NCBI GenBank assembly: GCA_012959275.1
Contig: DUDM01000042.1
Coordinates: 17,018-81,017 of the forward strand
Length of the DNA stretch: 64,000 nucleotides
From: Candidatus Poseidoniales archaeon
GTDB taxonomy: Archaea; Thermoplasmatota; Poseidoniia; Poseidoniales; Poseidoniaceae
Direction of reading: 5' to 3'
Shown: positions 20,901 to 50,726 of the stretch, one piece after another
Position numbering within the stretch: position 1 is the first letter of the stretch
How the letters are laid out: every line of letters starts with the position of its first letter
Program-made: the position numbers and the translations under genes
The notes under the pieces: model-generated
Told to the model about the DNA's origin: nothing
What the model saw: the letters and a program-made list of their open reading frames with translations, nothing else
Database searches by the model: none

Positions 20901-20974
20901 GGGCTTGTAGCTCAGTCAGGTAGAGCGCCGGGCTTTTAACCCGGTTCGCGCGGGTTCGAACCCCGTCAAGCCCG
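20901..20974 (+). tRNA. tRNA-Lys: tRNA-Lys (anticodon UUU); CCA is encoded at 20975-20977
   Basis: Hand-folded cloverleaf. Acceptor GGGCTTG/CAAGCCC, D stem GCTC/GAGC, anticodon stem CCGGG/CCCGG with loop CTTTTAA, 5-nt variable loop, T stem GCGGG/CCCGT with loop TTCGAAC, discriminator G. Confidence 0.9.
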
Positions 20975-21028
20975 CCATCTGACGACTCCAAGCCCCCCTC
21001 TGAATTGGGCACTGGCGGGTGAAGAAAA

Positions 21029-21649: not shown

Positions 21650-21662
21650 GGAGGAATTAATC

Positions 21663-25277: not shown

Positions 25278-28200
25278 AAACTAACGCAACTTCACTGATA
25301 CCAAAGCGAATTTCCAGCATCCGCTTCAGCCTGATGGACCCTAACGAGATCCGCAAGATGTCGGCTGTTGAGGTTAAGACAGCAGATACTTACAAGGATG
25401 ACGGGCACGCATATCGCCAAGGATTGATGGACCCCAAAATGGGAGTTATCGAACCGGGAATTCGTTGTGATACCTGTGGAAACAAGTATGATGAATGCCC
25501 ATCGCACTTTGGTCACATCCAATTGGAACTTCCAGTCATCCACATCGGTTTCGTTGGTCTAATCAAGACCGCGTTGAAGACAACTTGCAACTCATGTAGT
25601 CGCGTTCTTCTTCACGAAGCCAAGGGTACACATCCAAGCGATGCAGAAAAGTCAGAACAAGATTATTATCGCTCACGCATCATCGATACCATCCAAAAAC
25701 ACGGACTGGGTTCGACCGAGTTTTCCAAGATTATCAAGGAAGTCGAGAAGATATGTTGCAGTGCCAAGCGCCGAGTTTGCATGCACTGTGGTGAAGAGCA
25801 AGGAAAAATCATGCTCGATAAGCCAACCACCTTCAAGGAGAGAGCAGAATCCGGAACCACAGCAAAGGGCAGCGAAAAGAAACTCAATGCACGTGATATC
25901 AGAGAATTGTTAGGGGAAATCCCGATGAATGACCTAATATTCATTGGAATGGACAAGTCTAACCGACCTGAATGGGCAATCATGCGTGTACTACCTGTAC
26001 CCCCAATCACTGTGCGTCCCTCGATTACCCTTGACAGTGGAGACCGTTCAGAAGACGACTTGACTCACAAGTTAGTCGACGTTCTACGAATTAACCAGCG
26101 CCTACGTGAAAACCGTGACGCAGGTGCCCCACAACTAATCGTTGAGGACCTTTGGGAACTTCTACAATACCATATTACAACTTACTTTGACAACCAAACC
26201 AGTGGAATTCCACCGGCCCGCCACCGTTCAGGTCGCCCATTGAAGACCCTGACACAACGCCTGAAAGGTAAGGAAGGACGTTTCCGTAGCAACCTATCTG
26301 GAAAGCGTGTTAACTTCTGTGCCCGTTCAGTCATATCCCCAGACCCATTCTTGGGAATCAACGAGGTTGGAGTGCCTACTCAAATCGCCAAAGAACTGAC
26401 CGTACCAATTCGTGTCACAACAAGAAACCGTGAACAGATGAGACAGATGATTCTTCGTGGACCAAACGTACACCCTGGTGTCAACTATGTAATCCGCGCA
26501 GATGGTCGTCGTGTTAGAATCAATGACCGTTCAAAGCAAATTAACGCTGGATTCCGTTGTCATAACCCTGATTGTCAAACCGAGACCACCTTACGCCCAG
26601 ATCTCGACAGTGTCATGCCAGCCCCTAATTTCCTTCCCGGAATCGTCATCCGTAAGATGACTCGCCGTACCGATACCGAAATTGGCGGCGCCCCACAAAT
26701 GGAAGAATATTACGAAGTGGATGAACCAGCAACTTTGTCAAATCTACAAGGTGAAGACGCCAGCCACCAACCATTGGCTGAAGACGACCCACGTGCAGTC
26801 CTACACTACCGCTGGAAGTGGGAGTTGGCAAACCCAGATGAGTCCACTGGGGCATACCCAGAGCACTTAGAGGTCTCCTGTCCTCACTGTGGTTCTCCTG
26901 AAATAAACGGCTATAGAACTCGAGTAGAAGACCGCTTATCCACCTTCGACCTTGACGGTACACCCCGCCCAGGAATGATTATTGAACGCCACCTAATTGA
27001 TGGAGATGTTACAATCTTCAATCGACAGCCTTCACTACACAGAATGTCGATGATGGTTCACGAAATACGTGTTATGCCTGGCCGAACCTTCAGGTTTAAC
27101 TTGGCAGTATGTACCCCATACAACGCTGATTTCGACGGTGATGAAATGAATCTGCACGTAATTCAGGGAGAAGAAGCCCGTGCAGAAGCACAGATTCTGA
27201 TGCGTGTACAAGAACACATCCTTACTCCTCGCTATGGTGGAGCTGTTATCGGTGGAATACACGACCATATTTCTGGAGCATACTTGCTGACAAGGCCAGG
27301 TACTACGGTCGATAAGACAGTTGGTATGGATATTTTGGGACGAATCGATTACACCGGCCCTCTACCTAAAGAAATCAAGAGGGCTGATGGCTCACCCGGT
27401 TTTAACGGTGCAGACCTAATTGGCCTGATCGTCCCAGAGAACATCATGCTTCGCTTCCGTAGCCGTTCCAATGAAGATGTCATCATCAATTCAGGAACAG
27501 TTGTAGGAACACTCGACAAGAGAGCGATTGGTGCTGAAGACGGCCGCCTACTGGACGCTATTGTCCAGACAAACGGTCCAACTGAAGGAGCCAAGTTCAT
27601 TGATGACATGACTCGTTTAACTATCGGTGCTTGCACCGCTCTAGGATTTACAACTGGAATCGACGATGAAGACTTGCCCCCCGAAGCACTAGCAGAAATT
27701 GAGCGAATCAATTCCGATGCACGTGATAAAGTAGATGAAGAGTTGGTTAAATTTGGAAAGGATGGACGTGGCTATGAAGCCCGCCCAGGACGCACTCCAC
27801 TTGAGACCATGGAAGAGAATATCATGGTCATCTTGGACGAAGGAAAAGCCGAATCTGGTAATATTGCAAAGACCAACCTGACCGAGAGCAGTGAAGACAA
27901 TGCTGCAGTAAACATGGCTATCTCTGGTGCACGTGGTTCGATGGATAACCTGACGATGATGGCCGGTTCAATAGGTCAAGCAAAGGTACGTGGTGCACGC
28001 TTGGAACGTGGATACAAGGATAGAGTTCTACCTCACTTCCCTCGTGGACTAAAGGGTGCTCGAGAAAAGGGATTCATCTCTTCTTCCTTCAAGCGTGGTC
28101 TTGAACCAACAGAGTTCTTCATGCTATCAATATCTGGAAGAGAATCACTGGTCGATACCGCGGTTCGTACCAGTAAGTCAGGATACATGCAACGCCGACT

Positions 28201-28405
28201 GATCAACGCAATGGACGACCTAAAGGTCTTCAAAGATGAAAAACTATCTGTTAGAAACACCGCAGACCGAATTATTCAATTCGAGTATGGAGAAGATGGA
28301 ATCGACCCATGCCGAAGTGTGCACGGAATGCCCGTCAATACTGATGTCATAATTGACAAAGTACTGGGCACTAAGAGCAAGGCTGTAAAAGGAGGCGGTA
28401 AGTGA
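25274..28405 (+). CDS. rpoA1: RNA polymerase subunit A' (Rpo1N) with lineage-specific insertion
   Basis: Zn motifs [44 protein letters not shown], and the catalytic [10 protein letters not shown]. 4-bp overlap with rpoB. Confidence 0.95.
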
Positions 28406-29961
28406 TGGTAGTAAAGAGTGCAACCAAGAAGAAGCTCATGGATATGCAGGTGCCAGAAGAATTTGCGCACTTGCTTGCGGATGACCGAAAGTGGGATGAT
28501 GTCAAAGTCCTAACTTCCCAAGAAATTGCAGCCCTCTGTAAAACAGATTCAGAGACTGGAAATAAACTACACCAGATTATCCTCACCGCAGCAGGAGGCC
28601 GTTCCGATAGTTCAGATGCCGGAGCCACCACCGTAGTTCGCCGAAGAGTAGCCAGCCGCCGCCGCCGTACAAAGGTGGTTCAGGAACTCGAAGTGTATGA
28701 TGAAGATAGTAAACTGGGACTTTATTACGATGAAATTGTAGAAGACCCAATCCACAAGGCACTCGTGAAGGCTGATGAAGCAACTGGTGGAAAACCACTA
28801 TCTGCTCGTGTATTAACCGACTTGTGCGACTCTCTTTGGGCTCGTGAGCGCAAGAAGATTACAGCTAAGCAAGCGACTGAAATCATAGATGCAACCCGTG
28901 CTGCATTCAAGAAGGCCCGAATCGACCCATATGAAGCAGCAGGAATCACTACCGCACAATCGATTGGAGAACCAGGAACACAAATGACCATGCGTACATT
29001 CCACTATGCGGGTGTTGCAACAGTCAACGTCACTCAAGGTCTTCCAAGAATCATTGAAATTGTCGATGCTCGAAAAGTTCCAGATACTCCAACTATGACC
29101 ATCAGGCTGGATGAGGATAAGAAAAATAATGCTGATGCAGCCCGTAAGTTAGCAGCAGGAATTGAAGTCACTTTGGCAAAGAATATCGCCGATATCGAGA
29201 CTGATGTAGCACAGAGAAAGTTGGTCCTTAAACTCAAGGTTGGCAATCTCAAACAAAAGAACATGACTGGTGACGAAGTAAGGGACAAATTATCCCGTGC
29301 TCTACGCCTACACATAATAGCGGACAAGGAAAAGAAACCCCGTGTTTTGACAATCATCCCAGGAGTGATTAAGGAAGATGACCTTGCTGACCTTAACGAA
29401 AACCCCCCTTCCTATACTGAATTACTTCAATTGGAAGATAAGGTTAGAGACCTACGCCTCAAAGGAATTCCTGGAATTGAGCGTGCAAACGTACAGAAGG
29501 ATGAACAAACCGAAGAATTCTACCTCTCTACAATTGGTAGCAACTTAGCTCGTGTTTCAGACTTAGAAGGAATCGACCGTAGCCGCACTTATACCAACAA
29601 TATCATCGAGATTTACGAATACCTCGGAATAGAAGCAGCCCGCCAAGCCATCATCAATGAATTGAAGGCTACTTTGGAAGGAGCAAGATTGGAAGTCGAT
29701 GTTCGCCACCTATTGATGGTTGCTGATGTCATGACCAGTGAGGGAGCAGTTCGTGCAATTGGTCGCCACGGAGTCAGTGGAAACAAGCACAGTATCCTTG
29801 CACGTGCAGCATTCGAAGTCACCGTTAACCACCTACTAAAGGCAGGAATAATCGGTGAGCGTGATCGCCTAACTGGCGTAGCAGAAAACATCATCGTCGG
29901 ACAACCAATCAGTTTGGGAACTGGCGCTGTAGAATTGTTTTACATCCCCGAAGAGGGATGA
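28405..29961 (+). CDS. rpoA2: RNA polymerase subunit A'' (Rpo1C) with ~130-aa N-terminal extension
   Basis: [25 protein letters not shown] and the C-terminal [17 protein letters not shown] blocks. Its ATG overlaps the rpoA1 TGA by 1 nt. Confidence 0.92.
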
Positions 29962-30383: not shown

Positions 30384-31328
30384 ATGATGTCGCAGCCGTT
30401 GACCAAACTTTTGGAGCGTTGCGGAATAATTTGGCAGCAGCATGCTAGTCAACCGCAATCAAATCCTGGGCCTTTACTTTGGTTGGGCAGAGTTTGTGAA
30501 TCAAGTAGGATAGAGAGGGGATTAGGTCCTCTTCTCGGACCAGATATTTGGTGTTCTGAGGGTGAATGGCCTGGTTTAACACCAGCAGATATCGAAACTT
30601 GGTTGGTTGATGCGATTCCAGGAGAACATCTTCTCATTTTACATGGGAATAAATCACCATTACAAGTTTCTCTTCCTTTTGGAGTGGAAATTATTTATCG
30701 CTCGGATTTGGCATCCATGCTTGGAGAACATCTTCTGGAAGGAGGTGAAGTAGGTGTCGAATCTTTTCAAGAAAACATTACCAAAGCATCCTACGATTCC
30801 GGTGAAAGTGCTATTCAACTAGGCAGGAATGAATTGGGTTTGGAGCCTAAAGTACGCCCTCAACAAATCCTTGAACGACTCGGTTTCTCTGGCCTTGGCC
30901 TTCGGCCCGTACATTTGCAGGCTAAATTATGGCATCTAAGTGGCTGCTTAGTTGGACCTGATGGAGAAAAGGAAGAGCGAGAATGGCTGGTCTTAGAAGA
31001 CCCATGGAGGCAGGAAATGGTTGAGATAATGGAGCAAGAATTACTTGATAATCCGCCGGATTTACAATTATTAGAAAACACCTCCACTTATGCCGATTCT
31101 ATGGCTAAATCGAAACTAATCGAGTTGCTAAGCCAACGTCGCACCTTCGAATTAGAGAGTGGAGGTGGTTCAGTGCTGAAGCGCTGGTTTGCCGAATTTA
31201 AAGAAAACTTAACACACACAAGAAAAATACTCGTGCCAGCATGGATTGGAGATATTCCTGGCCATGGAGAATCGATATTACATGGTTTAGATGCCAGCCT
31301 CATTAGTCTTTCAAAGACAACACTCTGA
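30384..31328 (+). CDS. Hypothetical protein
   Basis: 314-aa ORF occupying the slot where nusA normally follows rpl30e. No KH/S1 motifs and no recognisable family. Confidence 0.5.
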   Translation: MMSQPLTKLLERCGIIWQQHASQPQSNPGPLLWLGRVCESSRIERGLGPLLGPDIWCSEGEWPGLTPADIETWLVDAIPGEHLLILHGNKSPLQVSLPFGVEIIYRSDLASMLGEHLLEGGEVGVESFQENITKASYDSGESAIQLGRNELGLEPKVRPQQILERLGFSGLGLRPVHLQAKLWHLSGCLVGPDGEKEEREWLVLEDPWRQEMVEIMEQELLDNPPDLQLLENTSTYADSMAKSKLIELLSQRRTFELESGGGSVLKRWFAEFKENLTHTRKILVPAWIGDIPGHGESILHGLDASLISLSKTTL

Positions 31329-31365
31329 GGCAAGGTTTCATCAGGGTGCAATAACAGGAGACTGC

Positions 31366-34300
31366 ATGACAAGTGCCATTGCAGTCGATTCATCCGTCAG
31401 CCGAAGGCTGGTTTTCCTTCTTGTAACAATCTTTTTGACGGGATATTTTCTGCCTATTGTTGCCAATGAAGAAAGTGTCATGCCGCTTGAAGAATTGGAG
31501 GCATTGGATAGTTTTGATGCAAGTGCACGCTCTGGAACAGGCTGGTCAATGATGGCCGCAGGTTCCTCAAATGGAAATGCTAGATTCATCGATGTTCACG
31601 GAGCAACTGGGGATATGGTACTGGCTGGTCAAATGGATGGCGGTGGCCAAACTATCTCTTGGGATGGTATTTCTGCAACTTCTGGAGATACGGTTTCATT
31701 CTGGATGGCCGGCCTAGATAGTGGCGGTAATGGCAGTTGGGTTTCTGTTGCAACAGCAGCAGGTTCAAATTCTCCCGCGATAAATCCTGGTGGTCTTGTG
31801 GTTGCTGATAATGGTGATATTTACATTACAGGTTCATTTAGGGAGACTGCCACATTTGGCTCATTGAGTTTAACTTCCTCTGGCTATTACGATTGTTTTA
31901 TTGTTAAGTTAAATTCCAATGGTGATTTCCAGTGGGCTCAGTCGCTTCGAGGTGCTGCTGATGTTGTGACTGGTGCTACAACGACTTGGGATGTAGTATG
32001 GGGTACTTCGATTGCTGCAGTTCCAGGTGGAGTGGTGGTTGGAGGATTCTATCTTGGAAATACTGATGTCGGTTCAAATGCTGGAGTTAGTACAAGCGAT
32101 GGCGATATTTTCGTCGCTAAATACACTGATTCAGGTCAGTTTCAATGGTCTGTAGAAGCAAAAGGAAATGAAATGAATGAAGTTCACTCGATGGCAAGTA
32201 ATATGGCTGGAGATGTTTGGCTAGCAACTAATTTCCAAGATTCGATGACCTTTGGTTCTCACACGGTCTCAGCAGCAGGCTCAGGCCATCCTGTGATTGC
32301 AAAAATCGACGGTGGTGGCAGTTGGTTAGATGCTCAATCTGGTACAACCACATCAAGCACATTCCTAAGCGGATTAGCAGTTAACGTTGCAGGAGAACCA
32401 ATTCTTGCAGGGATTTTTTCAGGCTCATTGACTATGGGCAGTCGTACAATATCTTCCTATGGTGAGGATGATGGTTTCATAACCACCTTTGCAAGTGGCA
32501 GTTGGTCCTTCTTAACTCAAGTTGGAAGTTCTACCTATGATTATCTCTCCGACCTTCAAATTGATCCTAGCAGTGGCAATGCTGTCATCAGTATGGCAAG
32601 TGCAGGAAGCATCAGCATCGCAGGTCAGCAATTCACTTCACAAGGAGAAAACGATAGTATCATCGCGTCCTTAGATTCAACAGGTGCATGGTCAAGGATG
32701 GTAAGTGCTCATGGCAGTAGCGATAATTGGCCCGGGGCATTAGCAATAGATGACCTAGGAAATGTGGCTGTCGCTGGAACCTCTAGCGGTATGATAGACT
32801 TCTCTTCAACAAGTGCTGGAAGCGCATCACCAAGCAACTCATTCGGACCTTATGCATGGCATATCTCAGGATTTGGCAGTGCAGATAGTGATGGTGATGG
32901 AGTTTTTGATGAGGATGATAATTGTCCAGAGGACCACAATAGCGGCCAAGAAGATCATGATTCGGATGGTCAAGGAGATGCCTGTGATAGCGATGATGAC
33001 GATGATGGCATCCTTGATAATAATGGAGATGACTGCCCAACTGGGGAATTATTATGGCTCTCAACAAGTAATGCATTAGACCCTAATTCCAGCACTGATT
33101 GGGATATGGATGGTTGTAAGGATTCGTCAAGTGAAGATTTAGATATGGATAATGACCAGAAATTGGATGCCGATGATAACTGTCCGCGCACCGCTTGGGA
33201 CCGAAGCATTAGCGTTAGGCCAGAATGGATTAGTGAACCTTCTTCTGACAAGGACCTAGATGGTTGTAGAGATGGAGATGAGGATACGGATGATGATAAT
33301 GATGGTGTCGAAGATGGAAATGACAACTGTCCTGATGAGACTGGCACTTCCTCAAAGGGTACGATAATCGGTTGCCCTGACCGTGATGGCGACGGCTGGG
33401 CGGACCAAATTGATGATTGCCCCGACACAAATGGCAACTCAGAGAACGGCAGCCGTGTCGGTTGCTTAGACAGTGATGGTGATGGCTGGGCAGATGAAAT
33501 CGATGCTCTTCCCCTTGAGCCAACTCAGTGGATAGACTCAGATGGAGATTCATACGGAGATAATCCAAACGGCAACAAGGCAGATGATTGCCCTAATGAA
33601 TCCGGAGGTTCTTTTGAAGATAGACAAGGTTGCAAGGATAGCGATAATGATGGGTGGTCCAATCCTGATGTGATTTGGACAATTGATGACGGAGCAGATG
33701 CATTGCCCGATAACCCAACTCAGTGGAGTGATTTTGATGGAGATGGTTACGGTGATAATTATGGTAATCATTCTTGGACCATGACTCGAGATGATTCTTG
33801 GCCTGGTGAATATGTTTTACTTGCTCTAAATCAAGATGCTTGCCCTCTACAATATGGCGACTCTAGTCTTGGTGAAATATTGGGCTGTAATGACAAAGAT
33901 GGAGATGGTTGGGCAGATTTCATTGATGCATTCCCTAATGATGTAAACGAATATTTGGATAGCGATAAAGACGGTTTTGCAGATGGTACTGATGATTGCC
34001 GCAATACTAGGGGCGGCTCTCAACATGACAGAAAAGGTTGTCCAGACCTTGATGGAGATGGCTGGTCAGATGCTGATGCAATGTGGACAATAGGAAATGG
34101 TGCAGATGCGTTTAGAGATGAGCCAAGTCAATGGGCGGATGCTGATGGAGATGGTTATGGCGACAACTCCGAAGGAATAAAGGCAGACGATTGCCCTGAT
34201 ACTTTTGGAACACTCGATGAAGAAGGATTCAGAGGTTGCCCACCTTCTTCTAAAGCAAAGGAAACTGAAGATGACTCACTTTCTGAGGGCTCAAGTAACT

Positions 34301-34671
34301 TAGCAGGATTGGGTGATACTGATATGATTACAATGGGACTAATAATCGGTGGCATTATTGCAGTCTTGATTTTAGTTGTAGTCTTGGTAAGAGGCGGAGG
34401 TGAGGATGAAGAATACCTTGAGGATGAAGATGATGTTTATCACCAGCAATATGCAACTGCAATGCAAGGTACCGAGCAATATGCTAACCCCGCTGCCACC
34501 CATGCCCAGGCTCAATACCAAGCACCTCAACAAGTTCAGGCTCAACACCCAGATCCAACCGTAGTTGGACAGATGAGAACAGATGGAAATGAATGGTTAG
34601 AATACCCCCATTCATCTGGAATGTGGTATAGTCGCGACACAGCTACCCGTACTTGGGTACGTCGAATTTAA
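31366..34671 (+). CDS. Giant surface adhesin-like protein: SBBP-type beta-propeller repeats, thrombospondin type-3-like Ca-binding repeats, C-terminal TM and Q-rich cytoplasmic tail
   Basis: N-terminal anchor RRLVFLLVTIFLTGYFL. Repeats such as GDIYITGSFRETATFGS..DCFIVKLNSNGDFQW. More than 15 DxDxDGxxDxxD-type motifs (DSDGDGWADEID, DADGDGYGDN). TM LIIGGIIAVLILVVVLV. The ORF stays open from 31291. Confidence 0.8.
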   Translation: MTSAIAVDSSVSRRLVFLLVTIFLTGYFLPIVANEESVMPLEELEALDSFDASARSGTGWSMMAAGSSNGNARFIDVHGATGDMVLAGQMDGGGQTISWDGISATSGDTVSFWMAGLDSGGNGSWVSVATAAGSNSPAINPGGLVVADNGDIYITGSFRETATFGSLSLTSSGYYDCFIVKLNSNGDFQWAQSLRGAADVVTGATTTWDVVWGTSIAAVPGGVVVGGFYLGNTDVGSNAGVSTSDGDIFVAKYTDSGQFQWSVEAKGNEMNEVHSMASNMAGDVWLATNFQDSMTFGSHTVSAAGSGHPVIAKIDGGGSWLDAQSGTTTSSTFLSGLAVNVAGEPILAGIFSGSLTMGSRTISSYGEDDGFITTFASGSWSFLTQVGSSTYDYLSDLQIDPSSGNAVISMASAGSISIAGQQFTSQGENDSIIASLDSTGAWSRMVSAHGSSDNWPGALAIDDLGNVAVAGTSSGMIDFSSTSAGSASPSNSFGPYAWHISGFGSADSDGDGVFDEDDNCPEDHNSGQEDHDSDGQGDACDSDDDDDGILDNNGDDCPTGELLWLSTSNALDPNSSTDWDMDGCKDSSSEDLDMDNDQKLDADDNCPRTAWDRSISVRPEWISEPSSDKDLDGCRDGDEDTDDDNDGVEDGNDNCPDETGTSSKGTIIGCPDRDGDGWADQIDDCPDTNGNSENGSRVGCLDSDGDGWADEIDALPLEPTQWIDSDGDSYGDNPNGNKADDCPNESGGSFEDRQGCKDSDNDGWSNPDVIWTIDDGADALPDNPTQWSDFDGDGYGDNYGNHSWTMTRDDSWPGEYVLLALNQDACPLQYGDSSLGEILGCNDKDGDGWADFIDAFPNDVNEYLDSDKDGFADGTDDCRNTRGGSQHDRKGCPDLDGDGWSDADAMWTIGNGADAFRDEPSQWADADGDGYGDNSEGIKADDCPDTFGTLDEEGFRGCPPSSKAKETEDDSLSEGSSNLAGLGDTDMITMGLIIGGIIAVLILVVVLVRGGGEDEEYLEDEDDVYHQQYATAMQGTEQYANPAATHAQAQYQAPQQVQAQHPDPTVVGQMRTDGNEWLEYPHSSGMWYSRDTATRTWVRRI
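32880..34210 (+). repeat. Array of degenerate Asp-rich Ca-binding (TSP3-like) coding repeats inside the adhesin gene
   Basis: Recurrent D-x-D-G-D-G-(W/Y)-x-D and DDCP(D/N) motifs are visible throughout the translation. Confidence 0.7.
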
Positions 34672-36023: not shown

Positions 36024-37073
36024 TCAGCGCTTTCGAGTAGCAGATATTTTCTTTCCCTTCTTCTTGGGTCGGAGACGGGCTTGCTGGGGGTTTGCATCAC
36101 TGTCCAATGTTCCACCAAGTGAGATATTTCCCTCTCCAAGTAGGGTTGAAATTAGGTCTTTGGCAACATCTTCGGATTCTGCACCGCTCTGCATTTCTGC
36201 ATCGACGCTTGCATTGTGGTCATCAATCCAAGATTGGCGCTCCTTTCGCTCTGCCTTCATAGCATCCTTGACTTCGGTTACTTGTTTGATAAGTTCTAAG
36301 GCCTTTTCATGGATTTCATTGGCCTTTTCTTTCTCAGCGACAAAGCCATTGTGGTGCCTATCTCCTTCGCTTTTGAGGAAATCGCGGTGGGCAAACAACT
36401 CATCGAGTTCTTTACCCTCTTTGTTTGCCTCAGATACTGCTTCCAACATTAATTTATGAGCAGAATCAGCCTCTGATTTCATCCTTGCAATTGTTCCTTC
36501 AATGTCATCAAGGTCAATTTTAATCAAAGCCTGCTGTTTCAGTTCTGGTTCAAGTTCAGCGATTCTACGACGCATTTCTTTAACCGCTTTCACTAATCCC
36601 TTTTCCTTTGACAAGGTGATTGTTCCAGAAGTTTCGAGCCTATTTTCTATGGACTTTACCTCAGCAGTTAACTTGTTGTATTCTGCTCCCACCGACTGTC
36701 CCTTGCGTGCTGTGTCCTTGTTTGATTTGTGTTGCCCAAACAACTCTCTCATTTGGGATTGGATGGAATTGCGTAATTCCTTGTGTTCTTTTATTCTCAC
36801 TCTAATAGCCTTGACAACTTCTAGGCGAGCATCGAGTTTCTCCCTGTGTTCCTTGTATTGACCCTGAACGGCATTGCGTTGTTCTGCAAACCTGTTTGCC
36901 GAATCATTGTGTTGACCGCGAATGTCGCGCAGTTTTGAGAGTTTTTTCTCCATCGACTGCAATTTGTCTCGCAGGTCTTCATCCTCGGCTACAACCTCGC
37001 TTGCTTTGGCATCGGTTTGTTCGCTCATAGGCCATGCGAGAACATTAACCGTTTCAATACTGTTCATGCCCAA
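36024..37073 (-). CDS. Archaeal coiled-coil protein (COG1340-like), paralog 1
   Basis: 349 aa, K/E/R-rich heptad-like sequence, with the central block LETSGTITLSKEKGLVKAVKEMRRRIAELE and a basic tail RLRPKKKGKKISATRKR. Confidence 0.65.
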   Translation of the reverse strand: MGMNSIETVNVLAWPMSEQTDAKASEVVAEDEDLRDKLQSMEKKLSKLRDIRGQHNDSANRFAEQRNAVQGQYKEHREKLDARLEVVKAIRVRIKEHKELRNSIQSQMRELFGQHKSNKDTARKGQSVGAEYNKLTAEVKSIENRLETSGTITLSKEKGLVKAVKEMRRRIAELEPELKQQALIKIDLDDIEGTIARMKSEADSAHKLMLEAVSEANKEGKELDELFAHRDFLKSEGDRHHNGFVAEKEKANEIHEKALELIKQVTEVKDAMKAERKERQSWIDDHNASVDAEMQSGAESEDVAKDLISTLLGEGNISLGGTLDSDANPQQARLRPKKKGKKISATRKR

Positions 37074-42197: not shown

Positions 42198-42248
42198 GCA
42201 GGGGTGTGAATACCTTTGTGGCAGTGGTGCACCCTTTAACCAACCTTT

Positions 42249-43136
42249 ATGTCGGTATCTCGCATCGAGCGCCCGTTCAACATGGACCCAGCAGCCCTCC
42301 TTTCAATGCCGAGCGATTTACTCGCCAAGGCTGTGCTCCACCGCAGAGAGCAATTACTGGAGTCCTTACCCGAGCAAATAAGTCAACTAAAGAGCGAACT
42401 AGGAGGTACAAGTCCGGTTGCAACAGAGACTGGAAATAAGCGGGATGATGTCAATACCAAGGTTGCCTCGCTTAAACTTGAGAGAAACAAATACAAGGTC
42501 GAAGCCTTTGATTTAATCCGTCGAAGTAAAGAATTGCGAGAATTATTAATTTCAGAAGGTCGCTTGAAGAATCCCGATCCACAATGGGCCAAAGATAAGT
42601 TGGTCGAACAAATTGCACAAATGGAGCAAGATTTCGAAACTAGAGCCGGAGACCATAAGGCGGAGCGTAAATTCCTCAGGACAATAAAGGAATTAACCAG
42701 TAAGCATCAAGACGAAGTGAAGGCAAGAATTGCGTCAAACCCGGAGTTAGGGGAGTTGAACGAAATACAATCTAAGATTAAACCACTTTTTGAAGCAGCA
42801 GAAAAAGCCCATGATGCAATGGTGGAGTTAGTTGGTGAATCAGATGAGTTGCATACTTCTTGGACATCAGTTGTCGAGGAACAACGAATTTTACATTCAC
42901 GATTATTCAGAGCAGAATCAGCGCTTGAAAACTCGCTAAAGGCAACTGAATACTGGAAGAAACGCTTGCAAGATGGTTTTGGAGACTTAGGCGTCGCTGG
43001 TTTCCCAGACTTATATGCAGCTGCAAATAATATCAAGGAAGGTGGAATGTCGAGTATAGCAATACGCCGTCAAGCCAAATTGGAGAGGGAAGCAAAAGAG
43101 TCCACTAACAAGGCAAAGGAAGGTGAAGAAGAATGA
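42249..43136 (+). CDS. Archaeal coiled-coil protein (COG1340-like), paralog 2
   Basis: 295 aa (alternative ATG at 42282). Heptad-rich. The central block FETRAGDHKAERKFLRTIKELTSK parallels the other paralogs. ATGA overlap with the next gene. Confidence 0.6.
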   Translation: MSVSRIERPFNMDPAALLSMPSDLLAKAVLHRREQLLESLPEQISQLKSELGGTSPVATETGNKRDDVNTKVASLKLERNKYKVEAFDLIRRSKELRELLISEGRLKNPDPQWAKDKLVEQIAQMEQDFETRAGDHKAERKFLRTIKELTSKHQDEVKARIASNPELGELNEIQSKIKPLFEAAEKAHDAMVELVGESDELHTSWTSVVEEQRILHSRLFRAESALENSLKATEYWKKRLQDGFGDLGVAGFPDLYAAANNIKEGGMSSIAIRRQAKLEREAKESTNKAKEGEEE

Positions 43137-45133
43137 GTGATGATGTCTCTTTTTCATCCATTCTTGAGGACGCAACTCCCAATAAGCATGATTTGAAGCG
43201 TCGTTCAGGGATACTGGCTCATCTTCAGAAGTCCCTCGAGAAAAACCACAAAGGTGCGAGTATCAACTTTAGTGGCAACACCTCCCTCGGATTATCTCCA
43301 CGTCGTGGCGGAATCGAATTTTCAGTTTCTATACCAGAAGGAAAAACTGCAACTGCATTTAGCAAGAAATTTTCATGGGAATTGAATGGTAGAGGTCTTG
43401 AGGATGTCATCGTACACGATAATCGTTCAACACCAACAATTCATGGAAAAAACGACCGCACTAGTATTCCGGTTAGAATATCCATCGGCGATGCAACTGC
43501 TGAGAATAAAGTTGCTTTGCTAAGGCTTTTGAGTGATTCTGATAACCGGATTTCCAATTACCTATTGGCTGTTCAAAACTGGGTCCTTCATCGCGACTTA
43601 GCGGAACAATCAGGTGGACTTTCACCCTTTGCTTGGAGTATAGTTGCTTTGACTCACTTGCGTTCAATAAATTTGATTTCAGACCCATTCTTAGCCGATT
43701 CCGGAACTGTTGTTGAAGATGGAAAGAGGAGTCTAGATGTCGGTTTAGTTGAGTCCACTAAAACTATTTGGCAAGGAGGTGATGAGGAAGCGGAGTCGAT
43801 GTTCAAGTCATTCCTAACTTCATTGCAAGCACTCCAATTACCTGCGAAGAAAATCATCTCTCTACGAGTGCCAGACGGTGTTGGAAGAAAAGAATGCAAT
43901 TTCAAAGCACCTGATATTGGCAAACTTTCAGCAAATCAGAGGGTGCCTCATCTGTGGCCAATTCTTGACCCATTCGACCTAACTAAGGATATTTCTGAAT
44001 CACTAACTCTAGAGGGGGCAAAGAGAATTCTTGTTGAAGCCGCAAGAGAAGGCCTCAGTTCCGAAGAACTATTTTCAACTATTAAGGAAGATTTGCTAGC
44101 AGCAGATGAAGACAAAGATTTGTTTGCTGACCTTAGAAGCCGGCCTACTCCTGAAATTGAATCCGAAGCAAAGGAGTTGAGGAAGAGGAAGAGCTTGATA
44201 GAGGCAGAAGTTGATTCTATTAAAGTGGCAAGGCAAGCACAAATCAGGATAGTTGAAGCCTTACGTGGAATCGTCAATGACACAAGCGAGTTGAGAACTG
44301 AACAAAGAAAAATAATCCCTCAGTTAGGAAATAGGCGTAAGGAAATAGATAAATTACGTCAGCAAAGAGATGATATTAACAGTAAAATAGTCTTGCCTAC
44401 CAAAGCAATCGAGGAAGAAATAATTTTGGTTTATGAGAAATTATGTGGCGCGGCAAAGTCATTCCGTTATCCAAGCCCAGAGGAAGAAGTTCGCCTTTTC
44501 ATCTACTTCTTAGAATTACAAGAGATGTTCAAAGCCGCGGTCATTAGTTCAGAATGCCACCATGTATTACAACAATTATCCGGCCAACAAAGGGCTGCAG
44601 TAAAAGAATTGAAATCATTTGAATCAGAGACAGAGTCAATCAAGTCAGATGCTTTGGAAGGAATAACAAGTGCAAAGGAATTGAAAGGAAATTACCACGA
44701 AATGAAGGATATTGACCGGCAAATCGGAAAATTGTTGAGGAATCTGAATTCTAAGCGTGATGACTTAAGAGAGGCCAATCGTGAATTAGGCAGATTAGAT
44801 GCTTGGTTGAGGATACAGAAGAAGGACAGCAATAAGCCAAGCGGAAAGCGCCAAGGAAGTAAGGGTGGAAGTTCAGACAGACCCCATCAAAGCAGAGTTC
44901 CAAAGGTTGACATCAAGGAAGTAAAGAGAAAAGCCGCTAGCGGTGAATCAATGTCTCTGGAAGATTTCGGGGCCTTATTGTCAAGTGGAGGGCTTTCAAA
45001 TATAATCGCAGATGAGCCTCAACCATCGAGAAGCCGGCGAAAGAAATCGAACAAGAAGAGAGTTGGGGCCACATCAGGTAATCGTGGAACAGGTCGACCT
45101 GACCTCGAAGGGCGCGCAAACAAGAGGCGCTGA
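43133..45133 (+). CDS. Hypothetical protein: degenerate PAP/Cid1-like nucleotidyltransferase-like N-terminal half, COG1340-like coiled coil (paralog 3), basic S/R/K-rich tail
   Basis: The N-terminal half aligns by eye to the Pol-beta NTase/PAP-associated pattern (FSGNTSLGLSPRRGGIEFSV; IPVRISIGD; NRISNYLLAVQNWVLHRDL..SGGLSPFAWSIVALTHLR), but the catalytic acidic residues are replaced. The C-terminal half is coiled coil ending SLEDFGALLSSGG, followed by the basic tail. Confidence 0.6.
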   Translation: MSDDVSFSSILEDATPNKHDLKRRSGILAHLQKSLEKNHKGASINFSGNTSLGLSPRRGGIEFSVSIPEGKTATAFSKKFSWELNGRGLEDVIVHDNRSTPTIHGKNDRTSIPVRISIGDATAENKVALLRLLSDSDNRISNYLLAVQNWVLHRDLAEQSGGLSPFAWSIVALTHLRSINLISDPFLADSGTVVEDGKRSLDVGLVESTKTIWQGGDEEAESMFKSFLTSLQALQLPAKKIISLRVPDGVGRKECNFKAPDIGKLSANQRVPHLWPILDPFDLTKDISESLTLEGAKRILVEAAREGLSSEELFSTIKEDLLAADEDKDLFADLRSRPTPEIESEAKELRKRKSLIEAEVDSIKVARQAQIRIVEALRGIVNDTSELRTEQRKIIPQLGNRRKEIDKLRQQRDDINSKIVLPTKAIEEEIILVYEKLCGAAKSFRYPSPEEEVRLFIYFLELQEMFKAAVISSECHHVLQQLSGQQRAAVKELKSFESETESIKSDALEGITSAKELKGNYHEMKDIDRQIGKLLRNLNSKRDDLREANRELGRLDAWLRIQKKDSNKPSGKRQGSKGGSSDRPHQSRVPKVDIKEVKRKAASGESMSLEDFGALLSSGGLSNIIADEPQPSRSRRKKSNKKRVGATSGNRGTGRPDLEGRANKRR

Positions 45134-45171
45134 ATTTGAATAATGAAGCCTTGAAATGGGTATATTCTCCA

Positions 45172-45654
45172 ATGCCGAGTACTTTTTCATTATCTTTTTT
45201 ACAACACTGTAAAGGCTTAATTTTCAAAGCCACTGGCGAATCATATCCCTTGGAATTGATTCGTACTATGCCAGTTGATACATTGGTGGGAAGTTTTTTC
45301 CTCATCCCTGAAACTTATTCTAGACAGCAAGCAATGGATGAATTGAAGGTATTTGGGCTACTATGGTCGATGCGTATCGACGATAATTCTTCTCGGATAT
45401 TGACCTTTTTAATCGCTGAAGAATTCCGAGGGCGAGGTCTTGCATCTGATGTGTGGATTAGGTTTGTTGAAACAGGAATTGCAGAAGGAATACTGAATGT
45501 ATCATTAGAGGTTAGGGAGGAAAACGATATTGCCTATGAATTCTATTTGCGAAGAGGATTGCAAGCCAAAGGAAAATTGTCTCAATATTATCGACAAAGT
45601 GTTGGAGTTGCAATGTTCGGCCCATTACAATGCCCCCAGCCACAATCTCAATGA
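45172..45654 (+). CDS. GNAT-family N-acetyltransferase
   Basis: Acetyl-CoA motif A, LIAEEFRGRGLASDVW, followed by AYEFYLRRGL. An alternative TTG start lies at 45136. Confidence 0.75.
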   Translation: MPSTFSLSFLQHCKGLIFKATGESYPLELIRTMPVDTLVGSFFLIPETYSRQQAMDELKVFGLLWSMRIDDNSSRILTFLIAEEFRGRGLASDVWIRFVETGIAEGILNVSLEVREENDIAYEFYLRRGLQAKGKLSQYYRQSVGVAMFGPLQCPQPQSQ

Positions 45655-46022
45655 CCCCTCTTCATCTGCAGTTGATTGTGCCAATGCGAATCTTGGAGAC
45701 CTTGAGGTCTGATGCCTCTGCTTCTCTTGCAGTTATTATCGATATTGAGGCCTTGCCAATTTTCACTTCTCCTTCAGGTAGTGATGCTTCAGCAATTTCC
45801 GGAAGGTGGGCCGCATTGATGCAGTCTTTGGCCCCAGTGAGTCAGAAATCTGCAAGTGGGCCAATGGAAGAGTTGGTGATTTCAGGAACTGAAGGAGAGG
45901 TTATCGCCAGCCGTCTTGGGGACAGCCATTGGCTATTATTGGTGGTAGACGATAAATCGATGCTCGGTCGAGCAAAGTATGCAATCGCCGAGTCCAAAAG
46001 CCTCTTACAAAGAAAACTCTAG
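45651..46022 (+). CDS. Roadblock/LC7 (MglB-like) domain protein
   Basis: About 123 aa. The pattern ASLAVIIDIEALPIFTS..AAISGRWAALMQSL..MEELVISGTEGEVIASRLGDSHWLLLVVDDKSMLGRAKYAI fits the Roadblock fold consensus. Its ATG overlaps the GNAT TGA (ATGA). Confidence 0.6.
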   Translation: MTPLHLQLIVPMRILETLRSDASASLAVIIDIEALPIFTSPSGSDASAISGRWAALMQSLAPVSQKSASGPMEELVISGTEGEVIASRLGDSHWLLLVVDDKSMLGRAKYAIAESKSLLQRKL

Positions 46023-46702
46023 TCGAAGAGTGGTCCAAGGATAACAGGGCCTTGAGGGCCTACTTCAATCGCTTGCTTTTCCATTGAATGGCGAACGTGG
46101 CGCATCTTCTCAAGTTGGAGTGTGCGCACAATAGTGCCATTTCTACGGTCGAGCCCCAAAGAGATGATGGCATCTGCGAGGAAGCCTTCATTGCCGCCTA
46201 ATTCCGCATGGCTTCCAACATTACGTTCTGTAATAATGAAGACATTGAGATTTTGAGCCCTCAAAAAATCAAAGAATCCGAACATTTTCTTGCGCATTTG
46301 CTCATCGATGGTAGTCAGGCTGTAGATTGCACCTAATGAGTCTAGGACGAAGCAAGTGAATCTGTGACCGTGTTGCTGTTTGAAGTGTTCGATCATTCTG
46401 CGGGTGAATTTGAGATAATCCATGTTTTCATTTTCCCTTCGCAATTCTGTAAAATCGGTGATTTGAAGGTTGTGAGGCAGGTTCAATCCGAATGATTCGC
46501 AAGAGCGCAAGAGGCTATCAACTGATTCTTCAACAGTACAGTAGAGGCCAAATTCTCCAGTTCTTGTTAGGTGGTTTGATAGGAGGGTCATGCAAAACCC
46601 AGTCTTCATTGAGCCAGGTGGGCCTGTAACCAGTGAAAGATAAGGTGGTCTAACGTCGTTTTGAATGACCCGCTCGATTCCTGCAATGCTTCCTAGAAAC
46701 AT
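46019..46702 (-). CDS. KaiC/RecA-superfamily ATPase (single domain) with deviant Walker A
   Basis: IAGIERVI..LSLVTGPPGSMKTGF (Walker A with Met in place of the Gly before Lys). Walker B FVLDSLGAIY. FIITERN and LQLEKMRHVRHS blocks are typical of archaeal KaiC-like proteins. A TTG start at 46738 is also possible. Confidence 0.7.
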   Translation of the reverse strand: MFLGSIAGIERVIQNDVRPPYLSLVTGPPGSMKTGFCMTLLSNHLTRTGEFGLYCTVEESVDSLLRSCESFGLNLPHNLQITDFTELRRENENMDYLKFTRRMIEHFKQQHGHRFTCFVLDSLGAIYSLTTIDEQMRKKMFGFFDFLRAQNLNVFIITERNVGSHAELGGNEGFLADAIISLGLDRRNGTIVRTLQLEKMRHVRHSMEKQAIEVGPQGPVILGPLFD

Positions 46703-46850
46703 GGTGCTCGCCCTAGCCACAGTCGAATAGGACTTCAACTTATGGAGGGGATTGAGTAGTTGCTACACTGTGTTTCTTCGCTAGAGAATCGCAACACTAT
46801 TCAACATTGCACTTTCCAAGATTACTTTCAGTCCAGTTCCACGATTAAAC

Positions 46851-47044: not shown

Positions 47045-47938
47045 ATGAGCGAACTGAAGAATCTGTTGGAAGATAAGAGGAAGCTAGTCGATAAGAAAGC
47101 TACCGAATATAGACAGGTTCGAGACGATTGGAACGGCCGTACAAAAGACCATTTGACTGTGCGTAACAACCTCAACGGAGAAGTTCGTGAGTTGATTATT
47201 AATGTTCGTTCACAACGTGAATTAAGAGAGGAAAAGAATACCGAAGTTCGCGATAAAAAACAACTTCGAGCAGACTGCAATAAGTTAGTCAGAGAATCCA
47301 AAGAAAAGTTGGAAGTATTGCGCGGCGGCAGCCAACAAAAAGCCGCTCCCCAACAAGACGGCCACCGAGGTCGCCGTGAAAAGAAAGTGACGGTCCACAG
47401 CCTACGCAGAGATATGCAACGCTTTGAGCGAGAGTTCGAGATGGGGCGCCACACCGGTAAAAACGAGAAGAAAATCATGAAGAAGATGAAGGAGATACGT
47501 TCCCAAATCCGTTCGATGGAACTCTCGGAAGAAGGTAATGAAGAATTGAAGGCAATCCGCGAAGAATTACGCATCGCCATGGAATCCCAAGAAGAAGCAC
47601 ATATCGAAGTCACTAGAGCAGCCGAAGAAGCCCAACAGGCTCACGAGTTGATGATTGTCTGGAATAGCGAGGTAGACAAAAAGCGCGAAGAGGCAGAAGA
47701 TGCCCATCGCCGCCTACGCCGCTCAAAGAAAGAAGCAGACCAAGCCCACCACCACTACATCGTATCCATCCGCTGCCTTCACAGCACTCAGTCCATCCTA
47801 CGCTCAATCCGTGGAATCGAGAGTGGTTCAGCCCCTTCCAAGTCTGCCCGCGAAGAGGTGGCAGACTTGATGAGTAAATTGATGAGTGGTGAGACTCTGA
47901 CAACAGAACAGTTGATGGAGTTGCAGAGATTCGATTGA
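47045..47938 (+). CDS. Archaeal coiled-coil protein (COG1340-like), paralog 4
   Basis: MSELKNLLEDKRKLVDKKATEYRQVRDDWN.., with the central block FEREFEMGRHTGKNEKKIMKKMKEIRSQIRSME and a C-terminal VADLMSKLMSGETLT motif. The ORF stays open from 47018. Confidence 0.65.
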   Translation: MSELKNLLEDKRKLVDKKATEYRQVRDDWNGRTKDHLTVRNNLNGEVRELIINVRSQRELREEKNTEVRDKKQLRADCNKLVRESKEKLEVLRGGSQQKAAPQQDGHRGRREKKVTVHSLRRDMQRFEREFEMGRHTGKNEKKIMKKMKEIRSQIRSMELSEEGNEELKAIREELRIAMESQEEAHIEVTRAAEEAQQAHELMIVWNSEVDKKREEAEDAHRRLRRSKKEADQAHHHYIVSIRCLHSTQSILRSIRGIESGSAPSKSAREEVADLMSKLMSGETLTTEQLMELQRFD

Positions 47939-47953
47939 TTGGAGTTGCCCAAT

Positions 47954-49351: not shown

Positions 49352-50242
49352 ATGATGCCAGCAAAAGGAAAAATGATGAAAAAACAATTTTTCTTAGGAC
49401 TTCTTTTCCCACTCATAGTTTCTATCCTTTTCGCAATTAGCATTGAATCCTTAACTGAAAGTGATTACCAGGATGGTACATTCGAATCTAATGAACAAGG
49501 AGAATTCAGCATCGATTTGGCAGAGTTAGGATGGAATTGTGATGACGGTTCTTATTATGAAGCTAATCTAAATTGGAATACAAATAATACATCAATTCCC
49601 CATGGTTCTTATTTTGAAGCTTATTATGATTGTATGGGAGATTTAAGATATTATACAAACGAAAACATTGGCACTATCCATGAAAACGGTAGTATAGAGT
49701 TAGATTTATTATACCCCCCAGTTGACGGTTATGATGTAATATTTCATTATTGGAAAGATGGAAACAGCCGTACTGCATTATTGGGCCAAGGAGATGGAGT
49801 CAATACCACTTTCAGTGGAAATGTAGACCCTGATTATTGTGATGGAGATGGAGACTATCGATACTCGCTAGGTGGTAGCTCTAACGATAATTATGGTTGG
49901 TTCAGTACCAATGGAGGGCCACGGCCATGCTCCATATGGGAATCTGGAGACATCATTATTGATAGCGAATTGGAAGATGGAGTTTTGACTTTTAAATTAC
50001 CTGATACCCATTCAAGTGCTAAAGAAATCAACATCAAAATATATTCAGGGTATGACTCCAGCACTGACTTTATCATAGGAGTTCTTCCCTTTCTTGGATG
50101 TCTCGGATTCATCGGGGCAGGAGTAGGTGCTTACATGTCTGGATACAAGTGGTTTGCTTATGGGGTGGGAGCCTCAGTCATCGTGCTTCCTGCAGTTCTT
50201 TTCGTTGTATTTATAGCAGCACTAATGACTTATGGATTCTAA
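49352..50242 (+). CDS. Hypothetical exported/membrane protein
   Basis: The signal/anchor MMPAKGKMMKKQFFLGLLFPLIVSILFAI is followed by an Asn/Asp/Tyr/Gly-rich domain and two C-terminal TM helices. The frame stays open upstream to ATG 49175, through the tandem repeat. Confidence 0.6.
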   Translation: MMPAKGKMMKKQFFLGLLFPLIVSILFAISIESLTESDYQDGTFESNEQGEFSIDLAELGWNCDDGSYYEANLNWNTNNTSIPHGSYFEAYYDCMGDLRYYTNENIGTIHENGSIELDLLYPPVDGYDVIFHYWKDGNSRTALLGQGDGVNTTFSGNVDPDYCDGDGDYRYSLGGSSNDNYGWFSTNGGPRPCSIWESGDIIIDSELEDGVLTFKLPDTHSSAKEINIKIYSGYDSSTDFIIGVLPFLGCLGFIGAGVGAYMSGYKWFAYGVGASVIVLPAVLFVVFIAALMTYGF

Positions 50243-50258
50243 GCCAAAAGGTGAACAC

Positions 50259-50726
50259 ATGCCATTCGCAAACTTAACTTGGCGAGTCACCGCCTCGGGT
50301 CTTGAAGATGAATTGCTCATTGCAGATGCTCTTTCGTGGCTTTGCGGCGAGCCAGAGAGCATTGAACTGGAACGAACAAAATCCTACCACGGCTCCAAAG
50401 TTCACATGATCACTTCCAAAATAACCCGCCGCGGCGCTATCCGCAAAGCAATTTCTAATTTCGGTCCAAACTTGCTGAAGACATTATTGATGCAATTGGA
50501 TTCACGCTTACATGATGATAATGCCCTCTACTTCCGCCTCGACCTTGACAGCCTTATTCGAGGAAAACTCATCCTGAGCGAACCTGGCGGAAAAGCAACT
50601 GTAAAAGCCCGTCTCAAGTTCAAAGCATTCCCTGGTCAAGACACCCAGCAAGTCGTCAAAGATAGTCTTCAATCTCTGCTTGAAAGAGCACAAACTCCTG
50701 CTTTGCCGGATTATGAAGAAGAGTGA
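50259..50726 (+). CDS. Predicted RNA-binding protein (COG1931/DUF54-like)
   Basis: About 155 aa. LEDELLIADALSWL and ALYFRLDLDSLIRGKLIL resemble the TEDxxKV and FYLRxDKQ blocks I recall for this archaeal family. Confidence 0.4.
   Translation: MPFANLTWRVTASGLEDELLIADALSWLCGEPESIELERTKSYHGSKVHMITSKITRRGAIRKAISNFGPNLLKTLLMQLDSRLHDDNALYFRLDLDSLIRGKLILSEPGGKATVKARLKFKAFPGQDTQQVVKDSLQSLLERAQTPALPDYEEE

Follow-up and report, generated by a model that had tools for sequence, protein, structure and literature searches.

What might hold together four unlike genes, one of them related to RNA-tailing enzymes of eukaryotes, in a tightly packed unit of an archaeal chromosome? The question is raised by a 64,000-nucleotide stretch of DNA from a Candidatus Poseidoniales archaeon (assembly GCA_012959275.1, contig DUDM01000042.1, positions 17,018 to 81,017 of the forward strand), hereafter the window, in which a listing of open reading frames (ORFs), together with a direct reading of the sequence, places four co-directional ORFs on the + strand at 42282–46022. 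In order, these encode a coiled-coil protein assigned to the DUF7121 family (ORF1), a predicted terminal nucleotidyltransferase (TENT) joined to a second coiled coil (ORF2), a GNAT acetyltransferase (ORF3), and a Roadblock protein (ORF4). At this locus, a known enzyme family turns up in a domain of life where it was not expected, as part of an undescribed operon, and the window itself carries a form of the enzyme that, to judge by its residues, is catalytically dead. Tailing enzymes of the Cid1/TUT type are regarded as eukaryotic, while the RNA-tailing activity known from archaea is that of the exosome, and no report of a Cid1-type enzyme in archaea was found in the literature searched. The Poseidoniales (Marine Group II, MG-II) are uncultured but rank among the most abundant planktonic archaea. 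The reading that we favour, with modest confidence, is that the four genes form a Poseidoniales operon in which a eukaryote-type TENT, reduced to a pseudoenzyme in the window's lineage, acts as part of an RNA-directed scaffold complex.

The evidence that carries the finding comes from the head of ORF2. An AlphaFold2 model of amino acids (aa) 1–330 reached a predicted local distance difference test score (pLDDT) of 92.2 and a predicted template modelling score (pTM) of 0.92, and its top 50 Foldseek matches in the PDB were all Cid1, URT1, TUT1, TUT7 or CutA, with E values of 1e-15 to 1e-17 and query template modelling (TM) scores of 0.60–0.77; the best of them (E ~1e-17) gave TM scores of 0.7–0.77 over ~330 residues. 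At the sequence level, a word-indexed search with ORF2 returned 17 relatives, one group being 88–99% identical and three lying at 44–46%, and when residues 1–326 were used in an exhaustive profile search, 19 proteins scored at E≤1e-10, including a set of 670–730 aa with the same full-length architecture and 22–28% identity to the window's ORF2. The homology of ORF2 to this TENT-coiled coil family extends over the full length of the protein (alignment E values of 1e-32 to 1e-11). Twelve to thirteen of 15 family members match PF22600 (best 1.6e-31), PF03828 (2.7e-15), NTP_transf_2, and TUTase in Pfam, and the family profile, when run against the PDB, matches human TUT7 at 1e-84, TUT4 at 5e-84, Arabidopsis URT1 at 1e-72, Cid1 at 9e-60, and GLD-2 at 1e-51. 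Even a single archaeal protein (P0021) matches TUT7 at 1.6e-52, its IEDPLDLDH aligning with IEDPFDLNH, the motif in which TUT7 has Asp1280 and the UTP-selecting His1286 (PMC6240794). The head is therefore best described, as far as a model can tell, as having the terminal nucleotidyltransferase fold of Cid1, TUT4, TUT7 and URT1.

Intact relatives carry the full set of motifs expected of such an enzyme, namely FGSxxSGLxLxxGDxDLCL, AKVPIVKFxD...PVDISxNN, VKxWAxxR...GTLSSYAW, and IEDPFDLxHDLS. Fifty-eight other Poseidoniales loci retain the GS motif together with the Asp-Asp-Asp triad and the histidine that selects UTP, a count of 58/58 that is biased toward intact enzymes and is not an unbiased frequency, since the pattern used for the locus scan (IEDP[FL][DE]...) was built from intact members only. 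The window departs from this set at every one of the key positions. Its triad positions are occupied by G60 (43310–43312), E62 (43316–43318) and R115 (43475–43477), with Asp at none of them, and the position of the UTP-selecting histidine is K285 (43985–43987); the corresponding motifs of the window clade read GLSPRRGG60-I-E62, PVR115IS, and LDPFDLTK285D, and the window has SG in place of the GS of the 58 loci. Of the three catalytic carboxylates, ORF2 of the window thus keeps only one, the histidine is gone, and the protein has no Pfam match, PF22600 and PF03828 included. A degenerate nucleotidyltransferase-like head and a basic tail had been proposed for this protein in an earlier note on the same DNA, and both are borne out, by the AlphaFold2/Foldseek fold and the lost triad in the one case and by an excess of basic residues (25 K/R against 10 D/E in aa 566–666) in the other.

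Loss of catalytic residues could mark a decaying gene, and selection bears on this point. The ratio of non-synonymous to synonymous substitution rates (dN/dS), which rests on a single pair, the window and its 90%-identical relative L076, was 0.12 for the head and 0.047 for its palm, 0.072 for the ORF2 coiled coil, 0.10 for the tail, and 0.068 for ORF1. Moreover, in relatives at ~45% identity, conservation of the head matches that of the other parts of ORF2. Because the TENT fold has been retained under purifying selection (dN/dS 0.12) while the catalytic residues have been lost, the head of the window's protein appears to be a pseudoenzyme under strong purifying selection and not the product of a decaying gene.

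The window clade is not alone in its degeneracy. A second degenerate TENT variant, P0031 (L073, 8001–10082), has Glu, Gly and Asn at the triad positions, lies in the same operon context without the KaiC-like gene described below, and keeps an N-terminal extension of ~45 aa that is absent from the window clade. In intact members (L007–L072), these N-terminal ~45 residues carry a conserved MSxxCxxTGxSxxQxxRWPxxH. In a neighbour-joining tree, P0031 groups with the window clade close to the root, which may be an effect of long-branch attraction, and one inactivation event or two would both fit.

The remainder of ORF2 is predicted to be a long helical hairpin followed by the basic tail. AlphaFold2 placed helices at 339–416, 423–438, and 449–566 with low confidence; the full-length model, built on a 7-sequence alignment, had a pLDDT of 52, and its helix boundaries alone were used. 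Order-wide motifs within the body include DLFxDLR, RDDIN, LPxxxIEEE, and PSxxxE..F..F.ELQ, and the tail motif KRKAxSGESMSxxDxxxLLSSGG is invariant across the 44–46%-identical relatives. Two features of this C-terminal half recall DUF7121: the RDDxN motif is common to both, and the SGExxSxE[DE] of the tail was aligned locally by hhalign with the C-terminus of a neighbouring DUF7121 paralogue, DUF7121b (P=0.009). In addition, two ORF2-family fragments bear a Joint Genome Institute (JGI) label of 'COG1340/DUF342'. A relationship between the C-terminal half of ORF2 and DUF7121 is suggested by these likenesses, their homology not being statistically established. A homology search with this half gave 7 matches, all fragments of the same family, and was dominated by coiled-coil word matches.

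ORF1 is, from its orthologues and profiles, a DUF7121 member (DUF7121a). The window's protein has no Pfam match when taken alone; its orthologues carry precomputed PF23435 matches, and its family profile matches those of two neighbouring paralogue families at 92–94% hhalign probability. These paralogues are DUF7121b, which is transcribed separately, and DUF7121c, which has precomputed PF23435 matches in all relatives. Three DUF7121 genes thus lie within 12 kb, an arrangement conserved order-wide, and DUF7121b (49–75% identity) is much better conserved than the operon copy DUF7121a (34–53%); it also abuts PurP directly, its stop falling at 47938 and the next ORF beginning at 47939. No significant match emerged when the coiled-coil proteins of the window were compared with one another by BLAST, and the DUF7121b profile found no solved relative in the PDB. 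The family (PF23435/COG1340) is probably arCOG01159, with TK2157 as its representative, judging from its size, its coiled coils and its COG1340 label. arCOG01159 is found in 492 of 524 archaeal genomes, is of unknown function, and has been listed as a top priority among archaeal families yet to be characterised (PMC6393860). In the literature searched, no mention of DUF7121 and nothing functional for COG1340 or TK2157 was found.

ORF3 appears from its sequence to be a GNAT of the N-terminal acetyltransferase type. It matches PF00583 at 30 bits and carries RGRGLA, an RxxGxG/A acetyl-CoA motif, together with LEVREENDIAYEFY. All 11 family members tested match TIGR01575 (rimI) under its trusted cut-off (best E 4e-15), the window's protein scoring 44 bits against a cut-off of 86.4, so that equivalog level is not reached. 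The best match of the family profile is Thermoplasma volcanium Ard1 (4pv6), at 2.8e-18 over nearly its full length, followed by Naa50, RimI, Naa30, and SSO0209. ORF4, of 123 aa, or 130 aa if read from an alternative ATG, matches PF03259 at 27.3–27.5 bits (cut-off 23), and a Roadblock/LC7 protein in the PDB (9jue_D) matches it at 1.4e-3. In an iterated search, a homologous small ORF was found 3′ of the GNAT gene in 54 of 61 candidates, and its alignment shows the Roadblock pattern. A profile search with ORF4 returned only Poseidoniales-type small proteins.

Is this arrangement peculiar to one genome? The earlier note had offered absence of the gene order elsewhere as grounds for dismissing the system, and a locus scan with one genome per GTDB species instead found the order kept in 64 species loci, plus metagenome contigs. 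These loci span both the Poseidoniaceae and the Thalassarchaeaceae, and one of them lies on the 2.06-Mb MG-II chromosome CM001443.1; all but one come from records labelled Poseidoniales or with a broader archaeal name. The exception, L060 (CAXRAI010000081.1), is a complete Poseidoniales block in a metagenome-assembled genome labelled as the bacterium Salinimicrobium sp., and its contig is probably a binning contaminant. The invariant arrangement has, on the - strand, genes for an NTP-transferase, DUF7121c, a 500–600-aa protein, DtxR, and a surface protein, and, on the + strand, DUF7121a, the TENT-coiled coil protein, the GNAT, and the small Roadblock-like ORF. To the 3′ side of the four genes there follow a KaiC-like gene (- strand), in some loci only, and then DUF7121b and PurP (+ strand). 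Within the four-gene unit, the ORF1 stop and the ORF2 start form a 4-nt NTGA overlap in 61 of 62 loci, and this overlap has been kept although the proteins are only 30–45% identical. Such tight junctions are not due to chance, and the four genes are one packed unit with a conserved translational-coupling signature. Positions and junction lengths are collected below.

Table 1. Features of the four-gene locus and its neighbours, with positions in the window (nt, nucleotides; aa, amino acids).
Feature	Position	Strand	Evidence or remark
TTTAT, TATA-box-like element	42246–42250	+	36 nt 5′ of the ORF1 start (ATG 42282)
ORF1, assigned to DUF7121 (DUF7121a), coiled coil, 284 aa	42282–43136	+	Orthologue PF23435 matches; hhalign
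ORF1 stop/ORF2 start, ATGA overlap	43133–43136	+	Sequence; NTGA overlap in 61/62 loci (ATGA 44, GTGA 12, TTGA 5)
ORF2 head, aa 1–326, predicted degenerate Cid1/TUT-type nucleotidyltransferase (palm and PAP-associated domain)	43133–44110	+	AlphaFold2, Foldseek, family alignment
ORF2 coiled-coil region, aa 327–565, predicted long helical hairpin	44111–44827	+	Low-confidence AlphaFold2; conserved motifs
ORF2 basic tail, aa 566–666 and stop	44828–45133	+	KRKAxSGESMSxxDxxxLLSSGG helix; RG-rich end
ORF2 stop, TGA	45131–45133	+	In-frame TTG at 45136, second TTG at 45151, ATG at 45172
ORF2 stop to GNAT start, across loci			-4 to +38 nt
ORF3, RimI/Ard1-type GNAT, TTG start	45136–45654	+	PF00583; TIGR01575; profile against the PDB
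GNAT stop/Roadblock start, ATGA overlap	45651–45654	+	Alternative Roadblock ATG at 45630
GNAT stop to Roadblock start, across loci			-25 to +63 nt
ORF4, Roadblock/LC7, 123 aa (130 aa from ATG 45630)	45651–46022	+	PF03259
Roadblock stop (TAG), overlapping the KaiC-like stop	46020–46022; 46019–46021	+; -	Convergent genes
KaiC-like single-domain ATPase, convergent neighbour outside the conserved core	46019–46738	-	PF06745 at 97 bits
Roadblock (or KaiC) to DUF7121b, across loci			Mostly 53–285 nt
DUF7121b, paralogue, separate transcription	47045–47938	+	PF23435 at 42 bits; 49–75% identical across the order
DUF7121c, third paralogue in the syntenic block	36024–37073	-	PF23435 at 26.5 bits, E 5e-6

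Most of what the earlier note had said of the layout can be retained. The four ORFs and the junctions that it described are all present in the sequence, and the ORF listing and Pfam agree with a tightly packed, co-directional four-gene unit of the composition that it gave; its domain calls are confirmed by Pfam for GNAT, Roadblock and KaiC, there being no Pfam match for ORF1 or ORF2. Two of its start codons have to be revised in whole or in part. ORF1 had been started at 42249, whereas every orthologue begins with a conserved M-D/T-P-x-x-L-L that corresponds to ATG 42282, and the start is accordingly placed there. For the GNAT, a TTG or the ATG at 45172 had been offered; the TTG stands (45136 or 45151) and the ATG does not, since the alignment has an invariant Trp8 that lies upstream of it.

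With the ORF1 start so placed, the first two bases of the discarded ATG at 42249 turn out to be part of a TTTAT element. This element and its spacing of 35–36 nt to the ATG are kept in the window, L076, L001 and L004, including relatives whose ORF1 is ~60% identical to that of the window, and its sequence and position suggest a TATA box for the operon, with a putative promoter function. Farther upstream, a 20-nt element, GTGTGAATACCTTTGTGGCA, lies at 42204–42223 between the divergent surface-protein gene (start 42197, - strand) and ORF1. It is kept in L001 and L004, where the flanking proteins are only 52–60% identical to those of the window, and it could be a promoter, a 5′ untranslated region, or a regulator site.

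The wider window also holds core information-processing genes, including those for RNA polymerase subunits B, A' and A'' (21636–29961), tRNA-Lys(UUU) (20901–20977), FttA/aCPSF1 (61428–63332), and a PF01877 'RNA_binding' protein (50232–50726), so that the operon sits in a housekeeping neighbourhood. A 1126-aa ORF at 31291–34671 (+ strand) has no Pfam match at E≤1e-4.

From where might an archaeon have obtained such a head? Ten proteins that the exhaustive search had found outside the Poseidoniales family were sampled; a source was named for six, all of them eukaryotic (tick TUT7/TUT4, coconut URT1, fungal Cid11, a protein with a poly(A) polymerase (PAP)/OAS1 domain, and haptophyte and Fabomonas proteins), the other four being metagenome sequences. 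A fold search of BFVD gave no viral relative. A single transfer from a eukaryote to the ancestor of the Poseidoniales, with later fusion to an archaeal coiled coil, would be the parsimonious reading of these relationships. The fuller proposition, that what was acquired was a eukaryotic terminal uridylyltransferase and that its fusion partner was a coiled coil of the archaeal DUF7121 type, is offered tentatively, as possible rather than probable.

How the four proteins could work together is best set out as a conditional scheme. ORF1 and ORF2 would be co-translated by way of the conserved 4-nt overlap and would build a scaffold by pairing of their coiled coils, which a Roadblock dimer would then clamp in the manner of the LC7 and Ragulator roadblock dimers; the LC7 dimer sits on the dynein intermediate chain and the roadblock dimers of Ragulator on LAMTOR1, with no NTPase needed. 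The basic tail would tether the assembly to RNA or to a ribonucleoprotein, and one of the subunits or a client protein would be modified by the acetyltransferase. The head would add non-templated U to RNA 3′ ends in most Poseidoniales; in the window's lineage it would be limited to binding, as in the N-terminal nucleotidyltransferase module of TUT4/7, which is inactive.

Several observations weigh against this scheme and temper our confidence in it. The complex of the four proteins, its action on RNA, and uridylation by the intact homologues are all conjectures from sequence. The alignment used for AlphaFold2 contained eukaryotic TENTs, and the head model leans on these. The likeness between the ORF2 coiled coil or tail and DUF7121 is weak by hhalign (2–28% probability, P 6e-4 to 0.03, the best alignment being 134 columns at 28%), and the C-terminal half of ORF2 has no Pfam match to DUF7121 at E≤1 and no hmmsearch match in either direction. 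PF03259 is reached at E≤0.01 by 3 of 15 ORF4 orthologues across the order, all within the window clade. The GNAT may simply be a housekeeping archaeal N-terminal acetyltransferase. Finally, the entire 11–12 gene block, including the unrelated PurP, DtxR, and surface protein, is syntenic across the order.

This last point opens the way to the plainest alternative, in which four unrelated housekeeping genes share a rarely rearranged block and take part in no common complex or pathway, the GNAT being a general N-terminal acetyltransferase. The block is indeed syntenic in all loci from the NTP-transferase gene to PurP, and the best match of the GNAT, Thermoplasma Ard1, is a general N-terminal acetyltransferase. 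Since the whole block is syntenic, gene order alone is weak evidence of a functional link, and the overlaps of starts and stops count for more; it is here that the alternative falters, given an ORF1/ORF2 overlap that persists at 30–45% identity, tight spacing of all four genes, and a wider gap between the unit and the next gene. DUF7121-like motifs common to ORF1 and the ORF2 tail also speak against it, as does the fact that the four genes are among the fastest-evolving of the block (within-order identity is 21–33% for Roadblock and 30–42% for ORF2 as against 49–94% for the flanking PurP, KaiC, and DUF7121b), and on balance we consider it unlikely. Faster evolution of all four genes together in the window clade was also considered as evidence and was rejected, as flanking genes there are likewise more divergent. 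A related possibility, which we would call improbable, is an N-terminal acetyltransferase holoenzyme in which the GNAT is catalytic, the coiled coils and Roadblock are auxiliary or anchoring subunits comparable to Naa15/HYPK of NatA, and the TENT head is a dispensable accessory. The GNAT is of the right type and, by its sequence, potentially active in the very clade where the TENT is dead, and the basic tail could bind ribosomal RNA. Against this, to our knowledge the archaeal N-terminal acetyltransferases studied so far work without auxiliary subunits, no ribosome association is evident, and the intact triads of the other loci (58/58 in a scan biased toward them) make it seem that catalysis matters there.

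Small GTPases are known to be regulated by Roadblock/MglB proteins, and the earlier note had pointed to the convergent KaiC-like ATPase as the only NTPase near ORF4. In an NTPase-regulatory module, ORF4 would control this ATPase or some unseen GTPase. Where both genes are present, their 3′ ends always abut or overlap (-21 to +6 nt). However, the KaiC-like gene is found in only 17 of ~54 species loci (23 of 61 when window-clade contigs are counted), and roughly two in three loci with the complete four-gene set lack it; it is encoded on the opposite strand, its product is 74–94% identical where present, far above its neighbours and in contrast to 21–33% for Roadblock, and no GTPase gene lies within the conserved block. 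With the KaiC-like gene in about one third of loci, a Roadblock–KaiC link is unsupported, and an NTPase-regulatory module of this kind is highly improbable. It is also conceivable that a nucleotidyltransferase and a toxin-like GNAT enzyme make up a defence or conflict system, as both kinds of enzyme occur in toxin-antitoxin and CBASS-type systems and P0021 gives a weak 18-bit match to the PADLOC 'Cyclase' model. We give this hardly any credence: PADLOC had no significant match for any component, only 13–18 bit noise from coiled coils or generic nucleotidyltransferases; the locus occupies a fixed chromosomal position by core genes in every sampled locus, with vertical inheritance; and its nearest relatives are eukaryotic RNA-tailing enzymes, not CD-NTases, with none among viruses. 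The Roadblock/KaiC pair and a defence system are thus largely excluded, and the RNA-directed scaffold complex is the reading with which we continue.

If that reading and the proposed origin hold, RNA 3′ uridylation would exist in an abundant archaeal order. DUF7121, probably arCOG01159, would at the same time receive its first functional handle, in the role of a scaffold by which enzymes that modify RNA and protein are brought to a target ribonucleoprotein. Both the fusion and the operon link TENT to DUF7121, which yields a testable hypothesis for a major family of unknown function. Moreover, the window's lineage would show a scaffold function outliving catalysis, its pseudoenzyme amounting to a natural experiment in which a tailing enzyme has turned into a non-catalytic module and is still selected.

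How, then, does this operon compare with systems that are known? The earlier note knew of no characterised system of such composition, and PADLOC and literature searches likewise gave none, so that comparison must proceed by component. DUF7121 is represented by ORF1 and its two neighbouring paralogues, and its short RDDxN and C-terminal SGExxSxE[DE] motifs recur in the body and tail of ORF2, a likeness that falls short of established homology. ORF3 shares with Ard1 (4PV6; Sulfolobus SSO0209) and bacterial RimI the RxxGxG/A core and the LEVRxxNxxAxxFY signature, but it falls below the rimI cut-off, is 30–46% identical within the order, and lies in an operon context that is new. ORF4 exceeds the Pfam cut-off and has the single-domain size of ~120 aa typical of Roadblock/LC7/MglB proteins; unlike these, it has no partner GTPase encoded nearby, belongs to a family confined to Poseidoniales in the search run, and evolves very fast.

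The closest parallels are those of ORF2. The window's head is predicted to have the same two-domain fold as Cid1, TUT4, TUT7, and URT1, and its intact archaeal relatives share with these enzymes the GS...DxD...D, KxWA...SSY, and IEDPFDxxH motifs, the last with the UTP-selecting histidine. The eukaryotic enzymes differ in carrying zinc knuckles or RNA recognition motifs where the archaeal family has a C-terminal coiled coil of ~240 aa and a basic tail, and the archaeal family is encoded, in an archaeal order, in an operon with DUF7121, GNAT, and Roadblock. Lacking two carboxylates and the histidine, the window's ORF2 should not be able to work as the known enzymes do. A precedent may be found in the inactive, Lin28-interacting N-terminal module of TUT4/TUT7, which likewise has the TENT fold without catalysis and serves there as a binding module, and the archaeal family profile aligns to residues 267–480 of TUT7 (i-Evalue 6.7e-19). 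By analogy, the dead head in the window may have a binding function of its own. In TUT4/7, however, the dead module lies beside an active one in a single chain, whereas the window's head is the sole TENT domain of its protein.

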